Below are positions 5,642 to 64,000 of a DNA stretch of 64,000 bases, piece after piece (position 1 is the first letter of the stretch; each line of letters starts with the position of its first letter). Below the pieces are notes generated by a model. It did no database searches. It had not been told where the DNA came from and saw only the letters and a list, made by a program, of their open reading frames with translations. The translations under genes were made by a program, and so were the position numbers. Source of the stretch: Minisyncoccota bacterium (lineage in GTDB: Bacteria; Patescibacteriota; Minisyncoccia; UBA6257; JAGOQP01); the NCBI GenBank assembly GCA_041661795.1, contig JBAZTS010000004.1:6136-70135 (forward strand). Direction: 5' to 3'.

Positions 5642-7168
5642 ATGGAAAACAATTTAGTCGCCTACTTGATAGGCGCGCTGGTTTTTGGTGTGGTTGCGGG
5701 TTATTTTGTCCGTCACTTTTTGGTTTCTCGTCAATCGGCTTCAATCGAGCAGACAACTAAAAGACAGCTTGAAGAAAGCAGGTCAAAGGCCAATGAAATA
5801 GTATTGGAGGCGCAAGAAAAGTCCGCCGGTATTTTGGATGAAATAAAAAAGGAAGAAAAAGAAAGAAAAGTTCAGTTGGATAAGGTTGAAGAAAGATTAA
5901 TGAGGAAAGAAGAATCCTTGGAAAAGGAATCTTCGGATATAAGAGAAAAAGAAAAATCGGTTGTTGTTGATATAGAAAAGATAAATCAGGCCAAATCTTA
6001 TATAGAACAATTAAAAAAAGATCTTTCTTTGCAATTGGAAAAAATTGCCGGCTTGAGCTCTCAAGAGGCAAAAGATTTACTTCTAAAAGAAGTTTCTCAA
6101 AAATATAGGCAAGATATTACCGACTATGTTGGGAAAATGATGAAGGAAAGAAGAGAGGAGATAGAAAAAAAATCCATAGAAATTTTGGCAACTGCCATGC
6201 AAAGATACAGTCGTTCTTCGGCTGCCGAGCTTACAACTACAGCAGTGCCTCTGCCCGATGAAGAATTTAAAGGAAAAATAATAGGAAAAGAAGGAAGAAA
6301 CATAAGAGCTTTTGAAAGATTAACCGGAGTTGAATTAATTATTGACGAAACCCCGGACAGTATTGTAATTTCTTCTTTTGACCCAGTCAGAAGAGAGGTG
6401 GCCAAAAGCGCTTTGGAAAAATTAATAAAAGATGGAAGAATTCAACCGGCCAAGATAGAAGAAAAAGTGGAAGAGGCCACTCAAGAAATTGCCAAGAAAA
6501 TAATGGAAGCCGGAGAAGCGGCCGCTTACGAGGTTGGAGTTTATGATTTACCCAAAGAAATCGTTCAACTTCTTGGACGACTTGCCTATCGTACCAGTTA
6601 TGGTCAAAACGTTTTAAGACATTCGGTAGAAGTTACTCATTTTGCCGGAATGTTAGCCGAAGAGCTTGGTCTTAATGCTGAAATAGCCAAAAGGGGAGCG
6701 CTTTTGCATGACATAGGAAAGTCAATTGACCATGAAGTTCCAGGAAGCCATGTGGATATAGGAAGAAAGATACTCAAAAAATACAATATTGATGAAAGGG
6801 TGATAAATGCCATGGAAGCTCACCATGAGGAGTATCCTTACGCTATTCCCGAGGCCTACGTCGTCTCTACTGCAGACGCTATCTCAGCGGCAAGACCTGG
6901 GGCTAGAAGAGATACCTTGGAAAATTACCTTAAACGCCTGGGGGAATTGGAGCAAATTGCTTCCAGTTTTGAAGGAGTTAAGAATTCATACGCCATTTCG
7001 GCCGGAAGAGAGCTGAGAATATTTGTTGTTCCTGAGAAAATAGACGATTTTGGGGCTTTGGAATTAGCCAGATCAATAGCCAAGAAGGTAGAATCGGAAT
7101 TAAAGTATCCTGGGGAGATAAGAGTAGTGGTAATCAGGGAAACCAGAGCGGTAGAGTATGCTCGCTAA
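5642..7168 (+). CDS. rny: Ribonuclease Y
   Basis: N-terminal TM helix, coiled coil, KH domain (GKIIGKEGRNIRAFE) and HD domain (LLHDIGK...). Confidence 0.9.
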   Translation: MENNLVAYLIGALVFGVVAGYFVRHFLVSRQSASIEQTTKRQLEESRSKANEIVLEAQEKSAGILDEIKKEEKERKVQLDKVEERLMRKEESLEKESSDIREKEKSVVVDIEKINQAKSYIEQLKKDLSLQLEKIAGLSSQEAKDLLLKEVSQKYRQDITDYVGKMMKERREEIEKKSIEILATAMQRYSRSSAAELTTTAVPLPDEEFKGKIIGKEGRNIRAFERLTGVELIIDETPDSIVISSFDPVRREVAKSALEKLIKDGRIQPAKIEEKVEEATQEIAKKIMEAGEAAAYEVGVYDLPKEIVQLLGRLAYRTSYGQNVLRHSVEVTHFAGMLAEELGLNAEIAKRGALLHDIGKSIDHEVPGSHVDIGRKILKKYNIDERVINAMEAHHEEYPYAIPEAYVVSTADAISAARPGARRDTLENYLKRLGELEQIASSFEGVKNSYAISAGRELRIFVVPEKIDDFGALELARSIAKKVESELKYPGEIRVVVIRETRAVEYAR

Positions 7169-7632: not shown

Positions 7633-8553
7633 TTATTTTATTAAATTCTTTGCGTTCAAACTCATTTTTATAAAAACATCGTAAGCCAACATTATTTTTT
7701 CAAATGATTGGGATATAATATTTTCAATATATTTTGAAGCTCTTTCTTGTATAACCTCTTCTTCTCCGTTGGATGGCATAAATTTATTATTTTTGTCCAA
7801 TTCATTTTTTAAATTTTTAAAAAAACTTTCTACCGACAAATCTCTAATCGGCGCATAAACGTTAAATATTATTTCCTTGGATTTGTCATTAAGTTGGTGT
7901 CCGTCTTCTATGTATCCCGAGGCCTGATCCAAAAGATTTTTAAGAGCCGGATTTTTAGTAAGTTTTTTGGAGTAGATTTTATTTATATCAATGCTCACTT
8001 TTTCCAATCTTTGGTCAGCCAGTTCTAAAATTTCTGAGATATTAAAAACGGCTATTACATTGTTTAATTTATAAAGAAAAGCGTCTATTTCCAGCGTCTT
8101 TTTGGTCTCTATGTTTTTGGCCATTTCTTTTAAATCCTCTATGGATATTTGGTCGTTGTTGTCTATCTTACTAATCTGGTCTTTATAAAAAACTGAGAAT
8201 TCATCTAATGTTTTGATGAATTTTTCCCTTATTTTTGTCCAATCATCGGTCTGGGGAAAAGAAATCATCTCCAGCTTTTCCTTGGAATCTTCTACTTGTC
8301 CCAAAGAAAGATCAATTACACTTTTAACTATTTTTATTCTTAAATCTGTCTCAGATTTTACTTTGTCTTCATCTGAAATTTTACTATCGTCTTTTATAGT
8401 AAAGAGTTTTTCCACGTCTTCTTTTGTCTGAGAGAGTTTCTCTTCTGTTTCCAGGTCTCCCGCTAAAACATTTTGGAAATTAAAAATAAAAATGCTTGTT
8501 ATTAAAACAAGAAAGGCGAGCGATTTTATTTTTTTATTATTTAAGAATTCCAT
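7633..8553 (-). CDS. Hypothetical secreted coiled-coil protein (signal peptide)
   Basis: N-terminal signal or anchor. Last gene of the sigma factor/anti-sigma/secreted-protein operon. Same three-gene layout as the 13472-15469 module, whose sigma factor is a clear paralog. Confidence 0.5.
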   Translation of the reverse strand: MEFLNNKKIKSLAFLVLITSIFIFNFQNVLAGDLETEEKLSQTKEDVEKLFTIKDDSKISDEDKVKSETDLRIKIVKSVIDLSLGQVEDSKEKLEMISFPQTDDWTKIREKFIKTLDEFSVFYKDQISKIDNNDQISIEDLKEMAKNIETKKTLEIDAFLYKLNNVIAVFNISEILELADQRLEKVSIDINKIYSKKLTKNPALKNLLDQASGYIEDGHQLNDKSKEIIFNVYAPIRDLSVESFFKNLKNELDKNNKFMPSNGEEEVIQERASKYIENIISQSFEKIMLAYDVFIKMSLNAKNLIK

Positions 8554-8555
8554 TT

Positions 8556-9086
8556 TTATTGAGAAAGCGCTTTAATAATTGAATTTAAATCGCTATTCAT
8601 TGTGGTTGAATCTAGATCTCCCGATTGGATAACTTTTGTTTCTTTATCAAGTATGGTCTGGTTTAAGTGGTTGAATTGATCTTTTGACACCTGGTCTAAA
8701 ACCTTTAAACTTTCCGCTGATGTTTTTTGAAAATGATCCAATTGGGATATCTGAATATTTATATTAGAATTGACGATCTCAGCTTCGGCTACCACTTTCT
8801 TTTCATTTAATCCCGGCAGAAACAAAGGGGAAAGTTCTCTAGTGGCATAATAAACCGAAACTAAAATCACCAAACTTCCAAGAACAAAAGAAATGGCTCT
8901 TGGGGCGTAGGTGAAGTAATTTAATATGGAAAAGGAACCATTGCCGATGCTAACGGCTAAATTTCCCTCCTCGTTATGAATTTGTTGACTCTGAAGAACC
9001 AATCTTTTTGAAGAAGCCGAAAAATCATTCTTTGGATGAATGTTTTTAAAACTTCCTAGTATAGATTTTAATCTTTTGGTTTCCAT
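8556..9086 (-). CDS. Putative anti-sigma factor (single-pass membrane protein)
   Basis: Single TM segment. The start overlaps the stop of the ECF sigma gene. Position equivalent to 14034..14687. Confidence 0.45.
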   Translation of the reverse strand: METKRLKSILGSFKNIHPKNDFSASSKRLVLQSQQIHNEEGNLAVSIGNGSFSILNYFTYAPRAISFVLGSLVILVSVYYATRELSPLFLPGLNEKKVVAEAEIVNSNINIQISQLDHFQKTSAESLKVLDQVSKDQFNHLNQTILDKETKVIQSGDLDSTTMNSDLNSIIKALSQ

Positions 9087-9658
9087 TGGTTGTCTTGGTT
9101 ATTTTCCTTTTTACCTATCATTTTCTTTAATTTTCTTATGGCTCTAAATTGAAGAACTCTGATGGCGCCTTGATTTTTTCCTATGATTTTAGATATTTCT
9201 TCGTAGGAAAGTTCTTCAACAAATCTTAAAATTATTATTTCTTGTTGGTCTGGAGTTAGCTTAGAAAGCGACTGATAGACCACCTCTATTTCCATTTTTT
9301 TGATGGTTTCTTCTCCTGCCTTCTCTTCAACTACTACCTCTTCCGTAACCTTTTCTATGTCAATTAGGTTCTTTTTGGTTCGGTAATGGTCTATAACCTT
9401 ATTTCTGGCTATTCTATAAAGCCAGCTGGATATAGGTAGTCCCTGATCCTTGAAAGAGTTTATATTTTGCCAAGCGCTTAAGAAAACTTGGTGGGTAAGG
9501 TCCTCAGCTTCCTCACGGTGGCCTACTTTAAGATAGATAAACCGGAAAATTCCTGGTTGATATCTGTCATATAGAAGGCCAAAAGCCGGGGCCTCACCCA
9601 TAATGGCTCTTTCAGCCAGGTCTTTCTCATTTTCTTTTTTAGAAAGCCCATCTAACAT
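9068..9658 (-). CDS. ECF-type RNA polymerase sigma factor
   Basis: Sigma-70 region 2 (FLSAWQNINSF..., 'YRIARNKVIDHYR') and region 4 HTH (LSYEEISKIIGKNQGAIRVLQFRAIRKLKK). Confidence 0.85.
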   Translation of the reverse strand: MLDGLSKKENEKDLAERAIMGEAPAFGLLYDRYQPGIFRFIYLKVGHREEAEDLTHQVFLSAWQNINSFKDQGLPISSWLYRIARNKVIDHYRTKKNLIDIEKVTEEVVVEEKAGEETIKKMEIEVVYQSLSKLTPDQQEIIILRFVEELSYEEISKIIGKNQGAIRVLQFRAIRKLKKMIGKKENNQDNQWKPKD

Positions 9659-13471: not shown

Positions 13472-14041
13472 ATGATTAGAACAAGAAAAGAAAAGTTAGA
13501 AAGTTTTGAACAAACCGTCGCAAAAGCGGGAAGGTTAGACGAGGACTCTTTTGCTTTAATATACCAACAGTGCGTTTCGCCTCTTTATAGGTTCTTTTAT
13601 ATACGAGTCAAAAATAAGGCGATTTCAGAGGATCTTACCCAATTGGTTTTTTTAAAGGCCTGGGGAAACATTAAAGATTTGGATAATATAGAAAATATTA
13701 CCGCTTGGCTTTTTACCGTGGCCAGAAACACATTAATTGACCACTGGAGAAAGAAAAAAGACATAAGTGTTGGCGACCTATCTTTTTTGGAGGAAAAGGG
13801 CGGTAGCTCTGATTCTTCTGGCGAGATAGATATAATAAAATCTATGGGGGAAATTGAGTTGGTTTTAGACAAATTAAATGATGAGCAGAGGGAAGTTGTC
13901 ACTCTAAAATTTTTTGATGGGCGTTCCAACAAGGAAATAGAAAAAATCATGAGAAAATCTTCTACTTCTATAAGGTCGCTTCAATACAGAGCCATGCTTA
14001 ACTTGAGAGATATTTTAAATAAGGACAATAAAAATGAATAA
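13472..14041 (+). CDS. ECF-type RNA polymerase sigma factor (paralog of 9068..9658)
   Basis: Region 2 (FLKAWGNIKDL, 'FTVARNTLIDHWR') and region 4 (EVVTLKFFDGRSNKEIEKIMRKSSTSIRSLQYRAMLNLR). Confidence 0.85.
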   Translation: MIRTRKEKLESFEQTVAKAGRLDEDSFALIYQQCVSPLYRFFYIRVKNKAISEDLTQLVFLKAWGNIKDLDNIENITAWLFTVARNTLIDHWRKKKDISVGDLSFLEEKGGSSDSSGEIDIIKSMGEIELVLDKLNDEQREVVTLKFFDGRSNKEIEKIMRKSSTSIRSLQYRAMLNLRDILNKDNKNE

Positions 14042-16084: not shown

Positions 16085-16215
16085 CTAATCTTGTCCGCCC
16101 GAAAGGAATCTCACATCGTCCGCTCAGGGCGGACTCTTTCAAAACCCTCGGTTTTGAATAATTTCCTACACAGAGGACTAAGCGTCCTCCGACCCACCTC
16201 TATTCGAATCCATTG
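16085..16215. repeat. Copy A of a roughly 130-nt conserved three-hairpin element located 3' of a tRNA (between tRNA-Lys and tRNA-Gly)
   Basis: About 90% identical to 46806-46935. Hairpins GTCCGC-TCAGG-GCGGAC, TTCAAAACC-CTC-GGTTTTGAA and GAGGAC-TAAGC-GTCCTC. The third hairpin shows compensatory substitutions between the two copies. It begins with TGTCCGCCC..GGAATC, mimicking the tRNA-Lys 3' end (TGTCCGCCC..GGATTC) about 170 nt away. Confidence 0.7.
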
Positions 16216-23654: not shown

Positions 23655-24576
23655 TGCTATCCCGGTTGACTTTTGTATGGTTCCGTAATAGTATAAAGAC
23701 AGCTCGTTTGAACTCAAAACGTGGAGTCCTGGGGGACACGCGACCGAAAACGGCTTGCGCTCCATCGGTGGCGCTATATAAAATAACCGATTCTGTGTCG
23801 TGTGGGCGAGGAAGTACACCTGCACACGACATGCCGCGGAGGTCGTAATCTCCGCTGGTCCGATTGACGGCACGTGTTGCCGTCGAAATAGTGGCTCTAT
23901 GCTACTGGAAGTTGTTACCACTCTTGTGGTAACGGAGGCGGTACCCACTCCGCTCTCCATTCCAAAAGGGGACGCCAAGCGCTCCCCGTAGGCATCGACG
24001 CCAGAAACAGATACATCGGATCGTGTAACACTTGATCAGTTCGCGTGCCCCCAGGCTCCCGTCAACACAGCACCACCCACCCCGCCCTCGAGGGTGGTTT
24101 CTTTTTATATAACTATATAACTTGACAAAATATTTAATGTATGATAACATGTGCACATGTGCAAACTGCAGATCCCGCACAACGACGGGATTGGTGCACG
24201 AGCACAGCATAGGGCGCAGGGATGAAGACCCTGTCTGCCTAAGCTAAGCTGTGCTCTTACCAAAGCAGGACCGCACGGGTCCAAAAAGAGCCCACCCAGA
24301 GTGGACTCAAGGGAACGAAGGCCTTGCCCGTTAGAGCCCAAATCAACTACAAGGGAACAACTCTGATTGACAATCGCTTTCCATCCCAAACCAAGAAGAG
24401 GATAGGCTTGAAGGTTTAATGTCATCTCAAACTCCTCACATTAGTGTTTACACTAATGTGACACAAAGTTTGACGAAGACAACCTCTCTCAAGCCACCTC
24501 AAAAATTTAAAGGTCGGCTACCTTTTCAAATAGCCACTGCACTCCTCGGTCTCTCTATGAGACCACTCGATCCTAA

Positions 24577-36055: not shown

Positions 36056-36137
36056 CCCCTATGTCAAAAAATTTGGATTGGCAAGATGGGAGTGTTTTTT
36101 GGTTGCATTTCTACAAAATACTTTGTAGTTTTGGTAT

Positions 36138-36863
36138 ATGGATAATCCGAAAATCTTAATTGGAACTCCTACTTATTCGGGAAAGTTTTATTGTCTCTCA
36201 GAATGGGTAGAAAATATAAAGAAGATTAACTATCCCAATTTTGACGTTCTTTTGGTTGATAACTCCAAAGATGATGAATATAAAAAGAGGATTGAATCTT
36301 TGGGAATAAATTGTGTTAAATCCCCGCATTATGAGGGAAATCCAGTAAAAAGTTTATGTGAAGCAAGAAAGGTGTTTTTTGATAAAGCTCTTGAGGGTGG
36401 GTACGATTATGCCTTTAGTATAGAACAGGATCTTTTCCCGCCAGCAGATATTATACAAAAACTTCTTAAGTCCGATAAAAAAATTATCGGAACTACCTAT
36501 CTAGTTGGTCAACTTATGGATGAAAAAATAAGGAGAAAAAAAGATTGGCTGACATCATTTGCCGATTTGGAGAAAGAAATAATATTACCTGATGGCAATA
36601 AGGCCATGTATTGGATGACTCTTTCGGAAATAAAAAATAGAGGAGTGTTTCGGGTCAAGAGTTGTGCTTTTGGATGCACGCTTATTGCTCGCGATGTATT
36701 AGAAAAAATAAAACCAAGAGTGATTGAAGGATTAAGAAGATTTGATGATTACTATTTTTTTGAAGATTGTTTTAAAGAGGGCATAGAGGTTTATGGAGAT
36801 TCAGATATTTTAGTAGACCATTATCCTAGTTTAGGCGGGGGAAGTGGCTGGATTACACTTTGA
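36138..36863 (+). CDS. Glycosyltransferase family 2-like protein
   Basis: 'LIGTPTY...DVLLVDNSKDD' Rossmann-like GT-A N-terminus. Confidence 0.5.
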   Translation: MDNPKILIGTPTYSGKFYCLSEWVENIKKINYPNFDVLLVDNSKDDEYKKRIESLGINCVKSPHYEGNPVKSLCEARKVFFDKALEGGYDYAFSIEQDLFPPADIIQKLLKSDKKIIGTTYLVGQLMDEKIRRKKDWLTSFADLEKEIILPDGNKAMYWMTLSEIKNRGVFRVKSCAFGCTLIARDVLEKIKPRVIEGLRRFDDYYFFEDCFKEGIEVYGDSDILVDHYPSLGGGSGWITL

Positions 36864-36881
36864 TTTCTTTCTATAAAATGA

Positions 36882-36917
36882 GCACGGCTCGGATGTTTCC
36901 ATCCGAGCCGGTAGTGC
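36882..36917. terminator. Hairpin GCACGGCTCGGA-TGTTTCCA-TCCGAGCCGGT, left boundary of the GC-rich/cassette island (a related copy at 42498..42527)
   Basis: Read directly; it follows the minus-strand GC-rich ORF 36944..37372. Confidence 0.6.
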
Positions 36918-36943
36918 TTTAGGCGTGTGCTTGTTGCGGGGAG

Positions 36944-37372
36944 CTAGAGTTCGTGAGCCCAGGGGGCCCAGATGATCATGGTGGCGTCGTCGATCGTCGG
37001 TTGCTCGTCTGGCGGTCTGGGGGGGATCGCGACGACGACGTTGCCCTCCCTGATGCCCAGTTCGGTAGCGGTTGAATCGAGTTCGGTTCTCAACGACGTC
37101 CAGAAAAAGTCGTTGAGAGTCCGAAACTGACGCCGGTTCCGCTGGATTTTGATGTATGACCGCCTGAAGAAGGAGGCACCACCAAGCGATGCGGTTTCCG
37201 CCGTCAAGCTTTCGATTTCGGCGACGATGAAGCTCATGACCCTCAGGATGGTGGCGAGGTAATCGGGGATTTTACCGATCACCTTCTCACCCTCCTTGAC
37301 GGGGGGAAGCCCGTCGCTCGCCGGGGTTTGTCCGGCCTTTTCCACTAACTCGTCTAACCATGGAATCTGCAT
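36944..37372 (-). CDS. Hypothetical GC-rich protein (142 aa)
   Basis: AAGGAG ribosome-binding site upstream of the ATG. Composition unlike the host backbone. Terminator hairpin downstream. Confidence 0.5.
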   Translation of the reverse strand: MQIPWLDELVEKAGQTPASDGLPPVKEGEKVIGKIPDYLATILRVMSFIVAEIESLTAETASLGGASFFRRSYIKIQRNRRQFRTLNDFFWTSLRTELDSTATELGIREGNVVVAIPPRPPDEQPTIDDATMIIWAPWAHEL

Positions 37373-37441
37373 CGTCCGCTCCTTTCAAAAGTATTTATGT
37401 ATTAACAGAAATTGAAGAAGTTGTCAATAAGATATAACCCA

Positions 37442-37472
37442 GTGTTTTTTGTTTTGGTGTAGGTGATATAAT
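37442..37472 (+). promoter_or_regulatory. Conserved promoter GTGTTTTTTGTTTTGGTGTAGGTGATATAAT (copy 1 of 3), extended -10 TGnTATAAT, ending 6 nt before the ATG
   Basis: Identical or near-identical copies at 39371..39401 and 40558..40588, each 6-8 nt upstream of a start codon (leaderless-type). Confidence 0.65.
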
Positions 37473-37478
37473 AAAAAC

Positions 37479-37712
37479 ATGAGAAAGGAGCCAAAAAAAC
37501 AAAACATTGTCATCTATCAAACTAAAACCGGAGCAATTGAGCTTCGCGGTGATTATTGCAAAAAAACTATTTGGGCAAATCGTATGCAGATGGCCAAGAT
37601 ATTTGGTGTAAATCCTCAAGCAATTTCTAAACATATTCAAAATATCTATCAAGAAAAAGAGTTACAAAGAAAACCAACTAGTTCCATTTTAGAACTAATT
37701 CAAAATGGATAA
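37479..37712 (+). CDS. RhuM/Fic-associated N-terminal DNA-binding-domain-like protein (77 aa, probably a fragment)
   Basis: 'IVIYQTKTGAIELRGDYCKKTIWANRMQMAKIFGVNPQAISKHIQNIY' resembles the N-terminus of RhuM-family proteins. Confidence 0.5.
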   Translation: MRKEPKKQNIVIYQTKTGAIELRGDYCKKTIWANRMQMAKIFGVNPQAISKHIQNIYQEKELQRKPTSSILELIQNG

Positions 37713-37913
37713 TAGTTAATGTAATTATAGATAATCGTTAAACTTTGCCTATCTTTATTTTATATTTACATACATAGATTTTAGATATATCTGAGGGAGT
37801 ATGTGCAAATTTTGCACACAGTATAATACTGTAACTAATTCTTATACCTATCCAACCCACCTACACCAAAAATATGCTTAAGGACCAAATGGCCGAAACG
37901 ATTATCACCAAAT

Positions 37914-37947
37914 AACATCCTTACAAACTCCAGTTTGTAAGGATGTT
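37914..37947. repeat. Perfect palindrome AACATCCTTACAAACTCCAGTTTGTAAGGATGTT (cassette-boundary hairpin)
   Basis: Read directly. It shares the CAAACTCCAGTTTG core with hairpins at 38961 and 39328. Confidence 0.75.
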
Positions 37948-38090
37948 ATTTTACGGCCCAACTTCCCAGTAGTAATCTTTGCTTTACCGCTTGGGAATTG
38001 GGACAGGTAGATTCTTATTATATTTTGACTTCTAAATTGACTAAGTGGTTAAATTGTGTTATCCAATAAGTAGAACTCAAGGAGGAAAGT

Positions 38091-38303
38091 ATGAAGATGG
38101 AGAAGATGACCGATCGGAAACTGGGGCGGAAGGCGATGAAAATTCGCCTGATCGCCGAGACCGAGGAGGAGATGTCACTCCTCACCGAGATCACCTCTCA
38201 GTTGTTAGGAAGGTGGCCGGTTCTAGGAGACAAACTGAAGGATGAGAAGGTTTTCCAGCTTGACGTCACTCTCCGCAAGATGTGGTCAGCTGTTCTCGGC
38301 TGA
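38091..38303 (+). CDS. Hypothetical small GC-rich protein (70 aa), first gene of a three-gene GC-rich module
   Basis: AGGAGGA ribosome-binding site. A TTGACTTCT -35-like element upstream, similar to the other GC-rich modules. Confidence 0.45.
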   Translation: MKMEKMTDRKLGRKAMKIRLIAETEEEMSLLTEITSQLLGRWPVLGDKLKDEKVFQLDVTLRKMWSAVLG

Positions 38304-38350
38304 CGCGAAGCGCTTGCTTAACTTGCTGTATGAACTGAAAGGAGACAGAG

Positions 38351-38617
38351 ATGTGCGGACCACAGTTGGGAATCCCGCTCAACGACCAGACCCTCGCTGA
38401 GATGTCCCAGGAGGAGAGGAACTTCTGGCTGGACTTCCTGGAAGAGGCCTCTGATGTCATCGAGAAAATGGCGGATGAAGAGGCCACTCAGCCATTCACT
38501 CCGCCGGCCTCGCTTCTGTCCAAGTACAACATGGCGGTGGCACGCTATGATGGGCGTGCTTACTGCCAGATCCTCCAACTGGAGGAGATCTTCAACTTCC
38601 ACCAGACCCAGACCTAA
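38351..38617 (+). CDS. Hypothetical small acidic GC-rich protein (88 aa)
   Basis: AAGGAG ribosome-binding site 7 nt upstream. Confidence 0.45.
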   Translation: MCGPQLGIPLNDQTLAEMSQEERNFWLDFLEEASDVIEKMADEEATQPFTPPASLLSKYNMAVARYDGRAYCQILQLEEIFNFHQTQT

Positions 38618-38628
38618 CAAGGAAGGAG

Positions 38629-38826
38629 ATGCCGATGTTTTCAAACAAGAAGTGTCCGAAGTGCGAGAAGTCGTACACGATCCTAGCGACCACGATCTAC
38701 AACGTCCAGTGGTGCTTCTCCCACGGAGAAGCACCCGTCTTCCTGGACAGGACGCTCTGTTGTGGAGCACCTGTCGGGAACTTTCGGGGAGGAGACCCCT
38801 CTTCGACGCTGGTGACCAGCACCTGA
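38629..38826 (+). CDS. Small Cys-rich protein (CPKC...YNVQW...RTLCCGAP), paralog of 42236..42424
   Basis: Clear amino-acid similarity to ORF 42236 (KKCPKCEKSYTILATTIYNVQWCFSHGEAPVFLDRTLCCGAPV vs KEKCPKCGQTCGMAITVYNIQWVRENGERPVYLSRTLCCGSPM). Ribosome-binding site present. Confidence 0.6.
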   Translation: MPMFSNKKCPKCEKSYTILATTIYNVQWCFSHGEAPVFLDRTLCCGAPVGNFRGGDPSSTLVTST

Positions 38827-38960
38827 TCAACTCTCCAACTACTTAAGTACAACCAGGGCAGTTTCACTGCCTCGACCGCCGCGGCCAACCCCCGCGGCGG
38901 ATCTTTTTTATAAAGAAATATAATTTTGATTTTCATCGCTAATCTTGGCCTATCTTTTCC

Positions 38961-39000
38961 ACATAACATATCAACAAACTGGAGTTTGTTGATATGTTAT
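38961..39000. repeat. Perfect palindrome CATAACATATCAACAAACTGGAGTTTGTTGATATGTTATG (cassette-boundary hairpin)
   Basis: Read directly. Same stem as 39328..39365, with the loop inverted. Confidence 0.75.
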
Positions 39001-39026
39001 GTGTGGGGATGTATAATATACAGAAT

Positions 39027-39311
39027 ATGGAAAAGCTAAAAACCGCCGAACAAATGGAGAGGCATCTTAAAGGAATGGCCAATCATTACCGGATTGAAAT
39101 TTTACTTCTTTTAGATTCCAGCGACGGCATAACTCTTGACGCTATTATAAAAGCAATGGATGCTGACCCAAGAACAATAGGGGAACACGCTAGACGTCTC
39201 TACAATGCCGGCTTGGTTGATAAAAAATATAGGGGCAGATTTATGGAGTATAAACTCTCTCCCTATGGGAAAAAATTTGTTTCTTTTTTAAAATCTTTTC
39301 AGCGTGTCTAA
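39027..39311 (+). CDS. ArsR/SmtB-family winged-helix transcriptional regulator
   Basis: 'MANHYRIEILLLLDSSDGITLDAIIKAM' HTH_20 pattern. Start chosen at the internal Met after the hairpin. Confidence 0.6.
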   Translation: MEKLKTAEQMERHLKGMANHYRIEILLLLDSSDGITLDAIIKAMDADPRTIGEHARRLYNAGLVDKKYRGRFMEYKLSPYGKKFVSFLKSFQRV

Positions 39312-39327
39312 TTTAAATTCTTTAATT

Positions 39328-39365
39328 ACAACATATCAACAAACTCCAGTTTGTTGATATGTTGT
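39328..39365. repeat. Perfect palindrome ACAACATATCAACAAACTCCAGTTTGTTGATATGTTGT
   Basis: Read directly. Confidence 0.75.
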
Positions 39366-39370
39366 TTTGG

Positions 39371-39401
39371 GTGTTTTTTGTTTTGGTGTAAGTGATATAA
39401 T
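39371..39401 (+). promoter_or_regulatory. Conserved promoter GTGTTTTTTGTTTTGGTGTAAGTGATATAAT (copy 2)
   Basis: One-nt variant of the 37442 and 40558 copies; it ends 8 nt before the GNAT ATG. Confidence 0.65.
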
Positions 39402-39409
39402 TAGTTTAA

Positions 39410-39871
39410 ATGAAAATAAAAATTAGGAAAGCAAAATTAGAGGAGCTAAAAAAGATTGTTAATGTAACCAGTAAAGCATTTGACGATCCGTTTGATCCTA
39501 AGGGCTACATAAGGAAAGACAAAGAGTATTATAAAGATTTAGTAGCGCCGTTTAAAGATAAAAAATTTGGTATTTTTGTTGCGGTCTATAACGATAAAAT
39601 AATAGGAGTTCAGCGATTTGAATTTATAAAAAACAATATAAATCTATTTCGGCTTGGTGTGTTAAAGTCATTTAGAAACAAAGGCGTGGCTCCGGCTTTG
39701 ATAAAAAGAACCGAATCCGAAGGTAAAAAGAAAAACTGCAAGAAGATAACTCTGATGTGTATTGAAGAAAAGGGATTGACTCCTTACTATAAAAAAATTG
39801 GTTTTAGGGTGGATAAGATAAAGAAGCATCGAGATCATCACGATGTTTTTATGTCTAAGTCCATAAACTAA
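39410..39871 (+). CDS. GNAT-family N-acetyltransferase
   Basis: 'IGVQRFEF...FRLGVLKSFRNKGVAPALIKR' acetyl-CoA-binding motif A (R/Q-x-x-G-x-G/A). Confidence 0.7.
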   Translation: MKIKIRKAKLEELKKIVNVTSKAFDDPFDPKGYIRKDKEYYKDLVAPFKDKKFGIFVAVYNDKIIGVQRFEFIKNNINLFRLGVLKSFRNKGVAPALIKRTESEGKKKNCKKITLMCIEEKGLTPYYKKIGFRVDKIKKHRDHHDVFMSKSIN

Positions 39872-39895
39872 TCTGCCTTCTCCTAAAAAGTTTTT

Positions 39896-40038
39896 GAGTG
39901 TTTTTTGGTTTAAGTTGACTTCTGTGATTTATGTGATATAACTATGGCAGAATTGTAGTCAATCGAAGTTTTGCACCAAACTGTCTGTGAACAGAAGGGG
40001 CGGTGTAAAACACTGCTCTTTCACAAGAAAAGGAGAAA
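39896..40038 (+). promoter_or_regulatory. Promoter (TTGACT ... TGTGATATAAC) plus conserved roughly 100-nt 5' leader of GC-rich module 1; homologous to 41903..42033
   Basis: About 75-80% identity to the leader at 41903-42033, including 'AATCGAAGTT(T/C)TGCAC' and 'CTGCTCTTTCACAAGAAAAGG(A/G)GA'. Alternative pairings GTGAACAG/CTGCTCTTTCAC and GAAAGAGC/GCTCTTTC preserve a hairpin. Confidence 0.55.
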
Positions 40039-40411
40039 TATGTCTCAGGCAAAGTGTAGTTCTTGCCAACGCGTTTTCGAACCGTCTGTCTCGTTCGACT
40101 TCTACCCGAAGCCGACTCCGAAGGATCCAGACGCCGGTTTGTGCGAGAGCTGTCTCATGAGAGGGATCTTCCAGGAGACGGCGCGCGACCCGGTCCCGGT
40201 TCCCAACGGACACGAGACGAGCGTCTGCAAGAAGGGACAGGGAGAACTGACCTGTAGCTTTTTGGGTCTCTCTTCCAGGGACGGGCACCTCGTCTACGAG
40301 TGCCTGAAGGGAAGCTCCTTGGAATCGGCCATCAGAGGGCGGCTTCGGGAGGGCTCCATGAAGTCCAAGGGGGACAACTGCTCCGGACCCCCCGACTTCC
40401 GGGCCAACTGA
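40039..40411 (+). CDS. Cys-rich protein (124 aa), apparently a fusion of domains homologous to ORFs 42034 and 42236
   Basis: The N-terminus 'CSSCQRV..YP..P.DPDAGLCESC' resembles 42034 'CDVCCYRR..YPVDP...C'. The C-terminus 'CKKGQGELTCSF..' resembles 42236 'CPKCGQTCGM'. Ribosome-binding site AAGGAG. Confidence 0.5.
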
Positions 40412-40557
40412 CCATCTCTCTCACAAAGCACAACCAGGCAGAACAAAACTGCCACTTGACCGCCACGGCTCACCCCGTGGCGTTCTGCTTTTGTAAAAAT
40501 ATTTTTTGGTTTCTCTTATTTTCTAATTCGTACGAATAGGTAAATAGAAAAATTGGG

Positions 40558-40588
40558 GTGTTTTTTGTTTTGGTGTAGGTGATATAAT
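40558..40588 (+). promoter_or_regulatory. Conserved promoter GTGTTTTTTGTTTTGGTGTAGGTGATATAAT (copy 3)
   Basis: Identical to 37442..37472; it ends 6 nt before the NYN-gene ATG. Confidence 0.65.
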
Positions 40589-40594
40589 ATAAAT

Positions 40595-41095
40595 ATGAGA
40601 ATAGAAGGAAATAATTGTGCCTATATTGATGGAGCTAACTTGCACAATGGTGTTGCCAGCTTAGGTTGGAATCTTGATTATAAAAAATTTAGAGTATGGT
40701 TATCGGAAAAATATTCAATAAAAAACGCCTATATTTTTATAGGACTCATTTCTAAGTACAAAGAACTTTATAAATATTTACAGGAGTGCGGATTTACTCT
40801 TATTTTTAAAGAGGTGATTTATGATGGAAACGGTAAGCCAAAAGGAAATTGTGACGCTGATTTAGTTTTACAATCTACTCGCGATGCTTATGAAAACAAA
40901 TTTGATAGATCAATTATTGTTACAAGCGATGGAGATTACGCTGGATTAGTAAAATTTCTTCAAGAAAAACAAAAGTTATTAGTCATTCTATCTCCCAACA
41001 ATCAGGAAAGGTGCTCGATTCTTCTTAAAAGAACTGGCGTCAAAATAGCTTACATAAATGACCAGCGTTCTATATTGGGGACTTCTGTAAAATAA
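40595..41095 (+). CDS. NYN-domain (LabA-like) putative ribonuclease
   Basis: 'AYIDGANL...D.ADL.L..........SDGDYAGLVKFL' NYN/DUF88 pattern. Confidence 0.65.
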   Translation: MRIEGNNCAYIDGANLHNGVASLGWNLDYKKFRVWLSEKYSIKNAYIFIGLISKYKELYKYLQECGFTLIFKEVIYDGNGKPKGNCDADLVLQSTRDAYENKFDRSIIVTSDGDYAGLVKFLQEKQKLLVILSPNNQERCSILLKRTGVKIAYINDQRSILGTSVK

Positions 41096-41841: not shown

Positions 41842-41902
41842 TTTATTGTCTCAAAACAGGGCTCTTGGAGCCCTGTTTTTTTTACATAAAAATGTTTGTT
41901 GT

Positions 41903-42033
41903 TATTTTGACATCTGTGACTTATGTGGTACAACTTGAGCAAGATTGTAATCAATCGAAGTTCTGCACTAAACGCTGTTTATCGAAAGAGCGGTGCGGGA
42001 CTTGCTCTTTCACAAGAAAAGGGAGGAAAGAAA
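41903..42033 (+). promoter_or_regulatory. Promoter (TTGACA ... TGGTACAAC) plus conserved 5' leader of GC-rich module 2
   Basis: Homologous to 39896..40038. Confidence 0.55.
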
Positions 42034-42219
42034 ATGCTTCCAGCATGTGACGTGTGTTGTTACCGAAGAGATATCTGGCGTATTTACCCCGTTGATCCTC
42101 GGAAACAAAAGTTGTCTCACAATCGCTATGCCTGCGATCTTCACAAGAGCGAAGTGATCTCGCGGGTGAAGTCCAGTACTGCGTGGCCCAACTTCGAGGT
42201 GATCGTCGAGAAGATCTGA
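42034..42219 (+). CDS. Small Cys-rich zinc-ribbon-like protein (61 aa)
   Basis: GGGAGG ribosome-binding site; 'CDVCC...C..H' pattern. Homologous to the N-terminal half of 40039..40411. Confidence 0.5.
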   Translation: MLPACDVCCYRRDIWRIYPVDPRKQKLSHNRYACDLHKSEVISRVKSSTAWPNFEVIVEKI

Positions 42220-42235
42220 AGGAAAGGAGAAACAA

Positions 42236-42424
42236 ATGCCGAAGAAGGAGAAGTGTCCCAAGTGCGGGCAAACGTGTGGGATGGCCATCACGGTCTATAA
42301 CATCCAATGGGTGCGTGAGAACGGGGAGCGTCCGGTGTATCTTTCCCGGACGCTCTGCTGCGGCTCACCGATGAGGGGATTCTGGGGAGAGAATTTCCCC
42401 CTGGTGCCGGGATCCAGCCCCTAG
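42236..42424 (+). CDS. Small Cys-rich protein (CPKC...YNIQW...RTLCCGSP), paralog of 38629..38826
   Basis: AAGGAG ribosome-binding site; paralogy as above. Confidence 0.6.
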   Translation: MPKKEKCPKCGQTCGMAITVYNIQWVRENGERPVYLSRTLCCGSPMRGFWGENFPLVPGSSP

Positions 42425-42497
42425 TTCTTTCGCTGTCGTACATTACCGGTCAGGCATCTCGCCTGACCGGTTTCGCTTCAAAAACTCACCCAAAATA

Positions 42498-42527
42498 AAG
42501 CACGGCTCGGAAAATCCGAGCCGGTGA
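42498..42527. terminator. Hairpin GCACGGCTCGGA-AAA-TCCGAGCCGGTG, right boundary of the GC-rich modules (a related copy at 36882..36917)
   Basis: Read directly. Confidence 0.6.
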
Positions 42528-42626
42528 TATTGTTGATGTGTTAATGTGGTTTGTGAGTTGTGCTTTCTATGTTACAATCAATGTCCCGGTCGAGTGATTA
42601 TTTCTAATTTTGTTTAAAAATATTTT

Positions 42627-43221: not shown

Positions 43222-43282
43222 ATTATTTTTTGATATAATTAAATCAGTTCGCTAAATCTTCTGCGAACCAAAAGGAGGCAGT

Positions 43283-43426
43283 ATGCCAGTTTGGTGTAAT
43301 AAGCACAACAAGGAGGTGAAGAAGAAGGACAGGGCGCGATGCTACAGGTTGGGGTGCTCGTGGCTGTCGTTCATCTTGCGACGAAAGAGCAGGAGAATCA
43401 GTCGGAGTAGCAGAAGGTAAGCACAT
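43283..43426 (+). CDS. Small Arg/Lys-rich GC-rich ORF (47 aa), tentative
   Basis: AAGGAGG ribosome-binding site 6 nt upstream; GC-rich. A hairpin terminator (AGGCCTGCGT-TTGGGG-ACGCAGGCCT) follows at about 43460-43490. Confidence 0.3.
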
Positions 43427-43549
43427 CTCGTCTCGCGGGTAACACCGTCGGGACGTCAGTAAGGCCTGCGTTTGGGGACGCAGGCCTTGTAAAATATACA
43501 CTTGCGTGAGCGAGTGATTTTTGTTATAATATAAATAAGGAGGTGTGAG

Positions 43550-43756
43550 ATGGATCAGGTGCTGGTTTCTTTATTGGCCGTAACGGTCATCGGTCTTCTT
43601 GCGGCTATCTGTTACGTCGTCTCTCTATTTATTAAGGGGAGATCAGACAAGAACAAAAAAATCAACAAAGAAATTACTGACTCCCTCTGCAAGTGGTCCC
43701 ACCAGGATATCGGAAAGCCGCCCGATGATCTCTGGAGTAAGCCGCCGGGAAAATGA
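43550..43756 (+). CDS. Small membrane protein (68 aa)
   Basis: GGAGG ribosome-binding site; one TM helix. A terminator follows at 43790-43832 (CGTCCGCGGGA...TCCCGCGGACG TTTTCGTTT). Confidence 0.45.
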   Translation: MDQVLVSLLAVTVIGLLAAICYVVSLFIKGRSDKNKKINKEITDSLCKWSHQDIGKPPDDLWSKPPGK

Positions 43757-43860
43757 GGTACACCATAATACTACGCACACGTTCGCTATACCGTCCGCGG
43801 GAGCAATTGGGCTTCCCGCGGACGTTTTCGTTTAAGAAAAGATTGATATATAATTTATCC

Positions 43861-46816: not shown

Positions 46817-46935
46817 TGTGAGCGGGTAAGGGGAATCTCACGTCGTCCGCTCAAGGCGGACTCTTTCAAAACCCTCGGTTTTGAATAATTTCCTACACGG
46901 AAGATTAAGCATCTCCCGACCCCTCTCTATTCGAT
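46806..46935. repeat. Copy B of the roughly 130-nt tRNA-associated three-hairpin element (3' of tRNA-Trp)
   Basis: About 90% identical to 16085-16215. It begins with TGAGCGGGTAAGGGGAATC, an exact 19-nt duplicate of the tRNA-Trp 3' end located 180 nt away. A bidirectional hairpin plus T-run (46940-46980) separates it from tRNA-Trp. Confidence 0.7.
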
Positions 46936-46985
46936 TCCATTCCACTCATAAAAAATATCCCGGCGATGCGGAATATTTTTTTATG

Positions 46986-47910: not shown

Positions 47911-47958
47911 CAGGATAGAAAACTCTCTAACGGGAGTTTTTTGATTGACATTTGACAT

Positions 47959-47976
47959 ATACCCCCGGGGGGGTAT
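47959..47976 (+). promoter_or_regulatory. CsoR-type operator ATACCCCCGGGGGGGTAT, overlapping the -10 (TATAAT 47974-47979) of a TTGACA promoter
   Basis: It matches the known CsoR operator architecture (TACCC-N-GGGTA, e.g. B. subtilis copZA ATACCCTACGGGGGTAT). It lies directly upstream of the csoR-like gene. Confidence 0.7.
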
Positions 47977-47977
47977 A

Positions 47978-48256
47978 ATGGAAATCATGAAAAAAACCAC
48001 AAACAAAAGTCGGCTTATCCAACGATTAAAAATTATTGAAGGTCAGGTCAGAGGTCTTCAAGAAATGGTTGAAAAAGGAGTTTATTGTATTGATATTATT
48101 ACCCAAACTTCGGCGGTAAAGCAGGGGCTTTCTAATGTGGAGGATATTCTTGTGGAGAGTCACTTAAACAGTTGCATTATCAATCAGATAAAATCGGGGC
48201 AAACCGACAAAGCCCAAAAAGAAATTCTCAAGGTTTATAAATTAAAAAGGAAATAA
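47978..48256 (+). CDS. csoR: CsoR/RcnR-family copper-sensing repressor
   Basis: DUF156 pattern 'RL.RIEGQVRGL..MVE....C.D...Q..AV...L'. Start taken at the internal Met; the transcript is leaderless or nearly so. Confidence 0.75.
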   Translation: MEIMKKTTNKSRLIQRLKIIEGQVRGLQEMVEKGVYCIDIITQTSAVKQGLSNVEDILVESHLNSCIINQIKSGQTDKAQKEILKVYKLKRK

Positions 48257-63650: not shown

Positions 63651-63806
63651 AAAACCCATACTTGACTTTTGTCTTAATATTTGCTATAATCCAAGGACAA
63701 ACTGGAATAAGGTGACATTGGGTCATCTTGTCCAGACGCACATTAACAAGAAGTGAACATGTTGTGGAAGGTTTAGGAACCTTACCGCAACAGAAAGGGA
63801 AAGCTC

Positions 63807-64000
63807 ATGTCCAATCGTGAGACGGCCCAAGCGACACTGGGACAGGTGTGGGAACTGCTGGGGGATATTTTCAAGATCCTCGGCAAAAAGTTCTCAGGCC
63901 TCTCCCTCTCACAGGTCCAGCGGTTGATCAGCAACAAGAAGCAGCTGATCGACAGCTACTGGAAGGTGGCTCTCGATATTCTCGGTGAGGTCGAGGATGT
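63807..64000 (+). CDS. GC-rich hypothetical ORF, 5' part only (runs off the window)
   Basis: ATG 63807 with an AAAGGGAAAG ribosome-binding site. Composition like the other GC-rich modules. Not in the ORF track because it has no stop within the window. Confidence 0.35.
   Translation, partial: MSNRETAQATLGQVWELLGDIFKILGKKFSGLSLSQVQRLISNKKQLIDSYWKVALDILGEVED

Follow-up and report, generated by a model that had tools for sequence, protein, structure and literature searches.

A 64,000-nucleotide (nt) stretch of a Minisyncoccota genome (assembly GCA_041661795.1, contig JBAZTS010000004.1; the whole stretch is called the window below) carries three near-identical copies of a 31-nt sequence, GTGTTTTTTGTTTTGGTGTAGGTGATATAAT, each placed directly in front of the start codon of an unrelated gene. 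We consider it fairly probable that this 31-mer is a portable extended -10 promoter, independent of a -35 element, which provides leaderless transcripts for single-gene cassettes and has spread along with gene turnover. In this model the housekeeping sigma factor would recognise TGaTATAAT without a -35, 6-8 bp upstream of the ATG, and transcription would begin at the A of the AUG or 1-2 nt before it, giving leaderless mRNAs from three independent single-gene units. The T-rich 5′ half of the element, GTGTTTTTTGTTTTGG, would abut the preceding unit and, when it lies past a long AU-rich hairpin, would double as the U-tract of a terminator. Hairpin and 31-mer together would then form a compact terminator-promoter junction that insulates neighbouring cassettes from each other. 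The copies would have become near-identical through duplication or recombination of the module, accompanying gene turnover in a hypervariable accessory/defence island.

The 31-mer is found in exact form at 37442-37472 (copy 1) and 40558-40588 (copy 3), and with one mismatch (G21A) at 39371-39401 (copy 2). All three are on the + strand and together span 3.1 kb. A mismatch search thus returned the copies that a preliminary description of this DNA had placed at 37442, 39371 (with one mismatch) and 40558. No further match with up to 3 mismatches was present in the window, nor did an nhmmer profile made from five long copies detect a diverged extra copy there. Dinucleotide shuffles gave no match in 100 trials (0/100), the chance expectation being none. 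In layout, the T-rich half is followed by the extended -10 TGATATAAT, which is unchanged in all three copies. The -10 hexamers lie at 37467-37472, 39396-39401 and 40583-40588, and the distances from the end of TATAAT to the ATGs at 37479, 39410 and 40595 are 6, 8 and 6 nt, respectively, in line with the 6-8 nt described earlier. The region of the 31-mer folds no better than its shuffles (z = +0.8 to +1.0).

The 3′ end of the element is a perfect extended -10 promoter motif (consensus TGnTATAAT) without a usable -35, which upholds on sequence the promoter assignment first made. A -35/-10 scanner leaves the three sites uncalled, there being no -35 with at least 4/6 matches at 16-18 bp, and in none of the three upstream regions did it find another promoter on the + strand. 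TGnTATAAT occurs 10 times in the window against 3.4 expected, with 9 of the 10 on the + strand, where most genes here reside. Because a divergent gene, a hairpin or a terminator lies upstream, none of the three genes can do without a promoter of its own within at most 100 nt. Copy 1 lies within the 106 nt that separate its gene from a divergently transcribed one, copy 2 starts 5 nt past a hairpin of 17 bp (-22 kcal/mol) that carries a U-rich tail, and copy 3 lies about 65 nt past the GC-rich intrinsic terminator of a high-GC cassette (cassette C; terminator at 40461-40494, + strand), on account of which the gene behind copy 3 must have a promoter of its own. With a start 7 nt past the -10, transcripts from copies 1 and 3 would open with the A of the ATG itself, and those from copy 2 would have 1-2 nt ahead of it. 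The spacing between -10 and ATG is most likely the architecture of leaderless mRNAs.

We also considered that the 31-mer may not be a promoter at all, and that it is a short selfish or duplicated intergenic repeat which happens to hold TATAAT, the genes being transcribed from upstream with AT-rich leaders. It may be noted that native genes here generally lack a Shine-Dalgarno sequence and are A/T-rich before the ATG, as this would predict. However, the divergent gene at copy 1 leaves no upstream transcript, strong terminator-type hairpins precede copies 2 and 3, and the full TGnTATAAT consensus stands 6-8 nt from an ATG in seven instances from two strains. The repeat has neither inverted termini nor dispersed copies. 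On these grounds we hold this alternative to be very improbable.

Each of the three ATGs is the first possible start past an in-frame stop, supplied for copies 1 and 3 by the TGA that forms part of TGATATAAT and for copy 2 by a TAA adjoining the ATG. In agreement with the earlier claim, none of the three is preceded by a Shine-Dalgarno core. Behind copy 1 lies a 77-amino-acid (aa) open reading frame (ORF; 37479-37712, + strand) which we identify by tblastn as a truncated N-terminal fragment of a RhuM/Fic/DOC-family protein (45% identity to the N-termini of annotated members, E 1e-10). Its GC content at third codon positions (GC3) is 0.24 and it has no Pfam or NCBIfam match; the earlier label "RhuM-N-like" is therefore apt for the tblastn match, the product being a fragment. 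Copy 2 precedes a GNAT acetyltransferase of 153 aa (39410-39871, + strand) and copy 3 an NYN/LabA-like protein of 166 aa (40595-41095, + strand), both identities agreeing with the earlier naming and confirmed by Pfam. The GNAT start is supported by a sister strain, whose orthologue (92% identical) uses the same ATG and has a different sequence upstream of it; a protein search found relatives of this GNAT in these two strains only and in no third. For the NYN protein, the N-termini of homologues are co-linear (MRIEGNNCAY versus MRPKENNFAY and MNNKSNNFAY).

Leaderless starts look like a local habit of the genome in the window. Shine-Dalgarno cores 4-12 nt upstream of the start were seen at only 3 of 54 native genes, and the lack of such a site is therefore normal here. 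On plotting TATAAT-to-ATG distances for ORFs of at least 60 aa in the window, a peak was obtained at 6-9 nt (8 cases, all on the + strand), over a background of about 0.35 per 1-nt bin outside it. Besides the three genes above, the peak includes a NERD-C gene (35582), a gene for an ArsR-like regulator (39027), a small membrane gene (43861) and a csoR-like gene (47987), all on the + strand. The last, a csoR/RicR-like repressor gene (47940-48256, + strand), has a TTGACA-17-TATAAT promoter, whose spacer contains the palindrome ATACCCCCGGGGGGTAT, and an ATG 7 nt past the -10; this same ATG, at 47987, is picked by an independent gene caller. As a separate observation, this gene looks like a textbook case of an autoregulated leaderless layout.

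The window has 37.6% GC and is chromosomal, with seven tRNAs and a transfer-messenger RNA; NCBI protein names place it in Candidatus Paceibacterota (Parcubacteria, Candidate Phyla Radiation or CPR), the host being an ultrasmall bacterium. The repeat is set in an island of accessory and defence genes located past a type I restriction-modification system (hsdR, hsdM, hsdS; 27.8-35.6 kb), among genes for PhD/ParE, RadC, HEPN-like, NERD-like, GNAT, NYN and ArsR/SmtB-like proteins. The preliminary description had proposed a genome-wide count of the 31-mer. On searching the window together with 4.2 kb more of the same genome, available from a 99.96% identical contig, no other copy was found, and the 68 kb thus holds only three copies, all in the island. 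In the GTDB representative genomes (596 Gb) a 21-nt core gave 3 matches, all in Clostridia and without the T-rich half, which we attribute to chance, and in viral contigs the 31-mer had no match. On this evidence (68 kb of the genome, GTDB and viral contigs) the 31-mer is not a generic promoter. The 7.4-kb island had no match in phage and plasmid collections, and Rfam, run on the island with gathering and E-value thresholds, gave only chance microRNA-like hairpin matches. A scan of metagenomes of the Joint Genome Institute (JGI) gave one true relative, the 11.3-kb contig L007, and four other matches that are unrelated.

L007 carries a syntenic island; the genes that it has in common with the window show 83-94% identity and a synonymous divergence of about 0.13-0.2. 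One assembly in the European Nucleotide Archive (ENA) holds both the window-type and the L007-type island alleles, and the JGI sample of L007 also yields a contig 99.96% identical to the window. As both alleles are found in the same assembly or sample, the two strains co-occur. In L007 the exact 31-mer stands 6 nt before a different GNAT-like gene, and a one-mismatch 31-mer stands 8 nt before a NERD gene, directly past a hairpin. Two shorter variants, GTGTTTTTTATTTGTGATATAAT-N6-ATG and GTGTTTTTTGGTTGTGATATAAG, have GTGTTTTTT and GTGATATAAT in common. The -10-to-ATG spacings in L007 are again 6, 8 and 6 nt. Homology between the window and L007 stops 3 nt past copy 1 and restarts 2 nt before the ATG of the GNAT gene. 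As homology breaks at the module edges, genes between modules are swapped while the modules stay, and the suggestion of a cassette system or duplicated module made in the preliminary description gains support from these breaks and from the other genes that the 31-mer precedes in L007. At the orthologous copy 1 position there are 0/31 changes between the window and L007 against 11/69 in the adjacent spacer (hypergeometric p = 0.013). On this comparison the whole 31-nt element is either constrained (selected) or homogenised.

Such conservation may be read as the mark of a promoter combined with an operator, in which TTTTGGTGTAGG (direct repeat GGTGTA/GGTGAT) binds a trans-acting regulator and the copies make up a small island regulon. 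The five long copies from the two strains differ at 2 variant positions in 155 nt, while the flanking spacer diverges by 16%, which exceeds what an extended -10 alone would need. Yet the 31-mer is without dyad symmetry and without structure, functional-looking short variants dispense with the 8-nt middle, and concerted evolution accounts for the identity equally well. Also, the only regulator nearby, the ArsR-like protein, is tied to unrelated palindromes that are absent at copies 1 and 3. We therefore think the operator unlikely, and a factor other than the ArsR-like regulator may bind positions 11-22.

Possible controllers of the motif had been named as the local extracytoplasmic function (ECF) sigma factors or the ArsR regulator, and neither is supported. 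The ArsR/SmtB-like winged-helix regulator (94 aa, assigned by Pfam; 39027-39311, + strand) is itself arranged as a leaderless gene, with TTGATA-17-TATAAT and an ATG 9 nt past the -10. A perfect 44-bp palindrome at 38960-39003, which belongs to one family with the hairpin beside copy 2 and has the loop inverted (GG versus CC), supplies, with its right arm, the -35 TTGATA of this promoter; the palindrome is likely an operator, in a classical autorepressor layout as far as the sequence tells. Palindromes of this kind occur only near copy 2 and at the regulator's own gene. As an observation in its own right, the palindromes at 38960-39003 and 39327-39366 stand on either side of the ArsR-like gene and form a perfect inverted repeat of 34 nt; they differ only by inversion of the central dinucleotide. 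Two ECF-like sigma genes, recognised on reading the translations (9068-9658 and 13472-14041), are 23-28 kb away. ECF promoters have a -35/-10 pair such as GAAC...CGT and usually lie beside the sigma and anti-sigma genes, while TGnTATAAT is a signal of housekeeping-sigma type. The 31-mer, with TGnTATAAT and a T-rich upstream half, does not have the form of an ECF-dependent promoter.

The 31-mer belongs to a larger family of modules. GTGTTTTTT is invariant in 9/9 related intergenic modules, most of which end in GTGATATAAT or GTGATATAAC. An extra GTGTTTTTT core lies past the NERD-C gene (36092-36100, + strand), at the position orthologous to the short L007 variant GTGTTTTTTATTTGTGATATAAT-N6-ATG. 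We tried GTGTTTTTT as a fixed-distance substitute for the -35 and rejected it, the spacing to the -10 being 17, 25 or 38 nt. A related promoter module serves the high-GC cassettes (repeat D3; 39898-39945, + strand, with a second copy near 41890-41937). It has the ends GTGTTTTTTG (5′) and GTGATATAAC (3′) as in the 31-mer and holds an inserted -35, TTGACT, between these ends; past it come a leader of about 95 nt and then a Shine-Dalgarno site. Since a module with the same ends drives a long leader, the common element is a promoter and not a device specific for leaderless transcripts.

The T-rich half can be related to termination. A perfect 38-nt palindrome at 39327-39366 (+ strand), predicted to form a hairpin of -22 kcal/mol, is followed by UUUUGGGUGUUUUUUG, and this U-rich tail is the 5′ half of copy 2. 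Transcription of the ArsR-like gene probably terminates intrinsically at this hairpin. L007 has the same arrangement of hairpin and 31-mer at 7805-7876. Overall, three T-rich halves, that of copy 2 and two in L007, come straight after an AU-rich hairpin of 17-19 bp, with energies of -22 to -24 kcal/mol and tails UUUUGGGUGUUUUUUG, and the hairpin arms vary among the instances by compensatory changes. Hairpin and T-rich half are built like an intrinsic terminator with a U-tract that runs into the following promoter, which would give the T-rich half a dual role. As copies 1 and 3 have no hairpin, the terminator role would be only partial. The same packing, a hairpin or T-tract and then TGnTATAAT, is seen in cassettes E and F. 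A further member of this hairpin family, its arms altered by compensatory changes, is present at 37909-37949 (+ strand), preceded by the remnant of a gene 3′ end (ending MAETIITK and a stop), and the remnant plus hairpin also occurs twice in L007. Viral contigs gave 52 matches to a 16-nt hairpin core, none with an extended stem, which corresponds to chance. A few side observations may be added here. The remnant (MAETI[IV][TV]K and a stop) is kept three times right before a hairpin, at 37851-37912 of the window and at 7740-7800 and 9537-9565 of L007. A small RNA before the 37914 hairpin was considered and ruled out, the region being a coding 3′-end remnant with synonymous changes in L007. At 37858-37871, CACCTACACCAAAA repeats 14 nt of the 31-mer in reverse complement, possibly by chance.

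The junction of hairpin and 31-mer may instead serve primarily as a crossover site for cassette swaps, similar to an integron without an integrase, with the promoter role secondary. We find this quite unlikely as the primary role, although several observations are in its favour: the segments in which the window and L007 differ structurally have both their borders at module edges, the gene remnant plus hairpin is repeated three times, and both island alleles are present in the same assembly. The contigs of independent assemblies also break beside the modules; a Logan contig (k = 31) of the same strain begins inside copy 3, at 40560, and an ENA contig begins at 40501, 57 nt upstream of that copy. 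But these breaks are largely due to the two alleles merging in the assembly graph, and the breakpoint statistics from two alleles only are thin. Moreover, a length of 31 nt is barely enough for homologous recombination, and no integrase, transposase or recombinase was seen in the 64 kb, for which precomputed Pfam results at 26.9-51 kb and Pfam/NCBIfam scans of the island ORFs covered part of the ORFs, the remaining translations being judged by eye. The island is like an integron array in having variable, mostly single-gene units with hairpin-forming repeats between them and in differing among close strains. It is unlike one in that no integrase or attI was seen here and each unit has its own promoter, while integron cassettes are typically promoterless. 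The hairpins, too, are perfect and terminator-like and not attC-like: attC sites have RYYYAAC...GTTRRRY cores and extrahelical bases, whereas the stems here are perfect over 17-21 bp, with ends AAATAAC...GTTATTT and U-tails.

Some results weigh against a leaderless extended -10 promoter as the full account of the 31-mer. In an AT-rich genome poor in Shine-Dalgarno sites, the presence of TATAAT near the ATG could be partly compositional, and the at least 16 conserved bases beyond TGnTATAAT exceed what a promoter strictly needs. The distance of the GTGTTTTTT core from the -10 varies among the module variants (17, 25 or 38 nt, as given above). The absence of a hairpin directly upstream of copies 1 and 3 means that the role of a terminator tail cannot explain the T-rich half there. 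At copy 1, transcription from a weaker TATAAC at about 37434 could produce an mRNA with a leader of roughly 30 nt, and only a truncated RhuM fragment follows. The extended -10 promoter with leaderless transcripts is still the reading that we prefer.

Promoters of leaderless mRNAs are known in Actinobacteria (Mycobacterium, Streptomyces), Deinococcus-Thermus and archaea. The 31-mer resembles these in that its -10 ends about 6-8 nt before the AUG and no Shine-Dalgarno sequence is present, the AUG being the predicted transcript start. It differs in belonging to a Paceibacterota/CPR lineage, in being a 31-nt module repeated almost exactly before unrelated genes, and in combining an extended -10 with a T-rich half. 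Within the literature collection that we searched, no paper was found to connect leaderless mRNAs with Patescibacteria/CPR. Extended -10 (TGn) promoters and the Gram-positive "-16 region" (TRTGn) promoters form a second class for comparison. Like the former, the 31-mer has TGaTATAAT with no recognisable -35, and the short and D3 variants, TGTGATATAAT/C, fit TRTGn. Unlike the latter, the long 31-mer has GGTG in place of TRTG and an invariant upstream GTGTTTTTT at variable spacing; we know of no counterpart of this upstream element described in extended -10 or -16 promoters. Neisseria Correia elements are small intergenic repeats that bring promoters or terminators, and the 31-mer is like them a short intergenic repeat with a predicted -10 promoter and terminator function for its neighbours. 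But unlike miniature inverted-repeat transposable elements, repetitive extragenic palindromic sequences and Correia-type repeats, it has no terminal inverted repeats, target duplication or dispersal, and consists of only 31 nt in 3 copies. It therefore appears to be a known design, that of leaderless and extended -10 promoters, in a new and poorly studied lineage, made unusual by its modular junctions and by a 31-nt unit that is repeated exactly.

As a more speculative proposal, to which we give little weight, the island may be a promoter-anchored cassette array. The junction of hairpin-terminator and leaderless promoter would then act both as expression signal and as short homology for swapping single accessory or defence genes between co-occurring Paceibacterota strains without a dedicated recombinase, interleaved with a second class of cassettes, foreign GC3-rich small ORFs with strong Shine-Dalgarno sites, that stand behind a related promoter with a structured leader. 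If true, one tiny genome would run two translation-initiation systems side by side. More generally, almost nothing has been worked out about promoters, transcript boundaries or translation initiation in the Candidate Phyla Radiation, and a 31-bp promoter would be a compact candidate part for the emerging genetics of these bacteria. Leaderless or Shine-Dalgarno-independent initiation, if it is the norm in this lineage as the window suggests, would bear on the calling of start codons in thousands of metagenome-assembled genomes. The locus also shows a defence/accessory island built of insulated single-gene units that differ between co-occurring strains.

The window also includes segments of a different composition. 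High-GC islands are present at 1679-2277, 23661-24418, 36813-37414, 38063-38940, 39987-40524, 42039-42555, 43243-43851 and 63711-64000, with 48-55% GC per whole segment and up to 62% in 200-nt windows, in a genome of 37.6% GC. Those at 36.8-43.9 kb are small-ORF cassettes with a GC3 of 0.57-0.78 against 0.24-0.40 in native genes. They have their own promoters and GC-rich terminators, and strong Shine-Dalgarno sequences, in 10/11 ORFs as against 3/54 for native ones. Their proteins are orphans, often Cys-rich or membrane proteins, for which no relatives turned up among viruses, phages or plasmids; the viral contigs were searched with those of 142 aa and 123 aa. Chimeric assembly was ruled out, as independent assemblies confirm the junctions, and a foreign origin of these cassettes is likely. 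The gene divergent from copy 1 is one of them (gene A, an orphan of 142 aa; 36944-37372, - strand; GC3 0.75; Shine-Dalgarno AAAGGAG), with a promoter TTGACA-17-TAATAC at 37399-37427 on the minus strand. It is conserved in L007, where 21 codons differ synonymously and 22 non-synonymously. Its protein, searched exhaustively by phmmer, gave only 15 weak matches, none informatively named.

Other features of these cassettes were also recorded. Cassette C forms its own 824-nt contig (39818-40641) in ENA assembly ERZ27249449, overlapping its neighbours by exactly k = 141 at both ends, and a Logan contig ends at 40488. This hints that a co-occurring strain may carry a different sequence between the common promoter and 40501. 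The D3 promoter and its leader of about 95 nt, at 39898-40040 and 41890-42036, are 81% identical and precede two different high-GC cassettes. RNAalifold gives a 10-bp helix for this leader, with one pair changed on both sides and four on one side, and no Rfam match was found; the leader may be cis-regulatory. Small high-GC ORFs in different cassettes (38629-38826 and 42236-42424) look on reading like paralogues (CPKC...YN[IV]QW...RTLCCG) and are zinc-ribbon-like. The high-GC segment of about 750 nt at 23661-24418 has little convincing coding potential except for a 106-aa minus-strand ORF with a Shine-Dalgarno sequence, and it has no Rfam match at E = 1. A 110-nt repeat of 90% identity occurs at 16105-16214 and 46832-46941 (minus strand), each copy adjoining a tRNA-Gly gene. 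One internal helix shows compensatory changes (GGAGGAC/GTCCTC versus GGAGAT/ATCTTC). Neither Rfam nor ARAGORN called the repeat, which may represent a structured RNA that has escaped annotation.

The NYN protein behind copy 3 has more than 3000 homologues, of which the best 120 are 73-83% identical and the named ones are from Parcubacteria/Patescibacteria, while a bactofilin-like neighbour protein has no homologue above 38% identity. The number and identity of the NYN homologues suggest unusually strong constraint or frequent transfer. We ruled out that the 31-nt module travels with NYN, as NYN orthologues in other Parcubacteria have unrelated upstream regions. Tandem or duplicate NYN copies are present in two further contigs, L014 and L015. 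L014, from another Parcubacterium, has tandem NYN paralogues with a near-identical, GC-rich upstream sequence of about 110 nt (5900-6000 and 6610-6709) that extends up to the ATG and ends TAAGAT-N6-ATG, and the coding sequences diverge straight after the ATG. The pair is an independent instance of a repeated upstream module in the same group.

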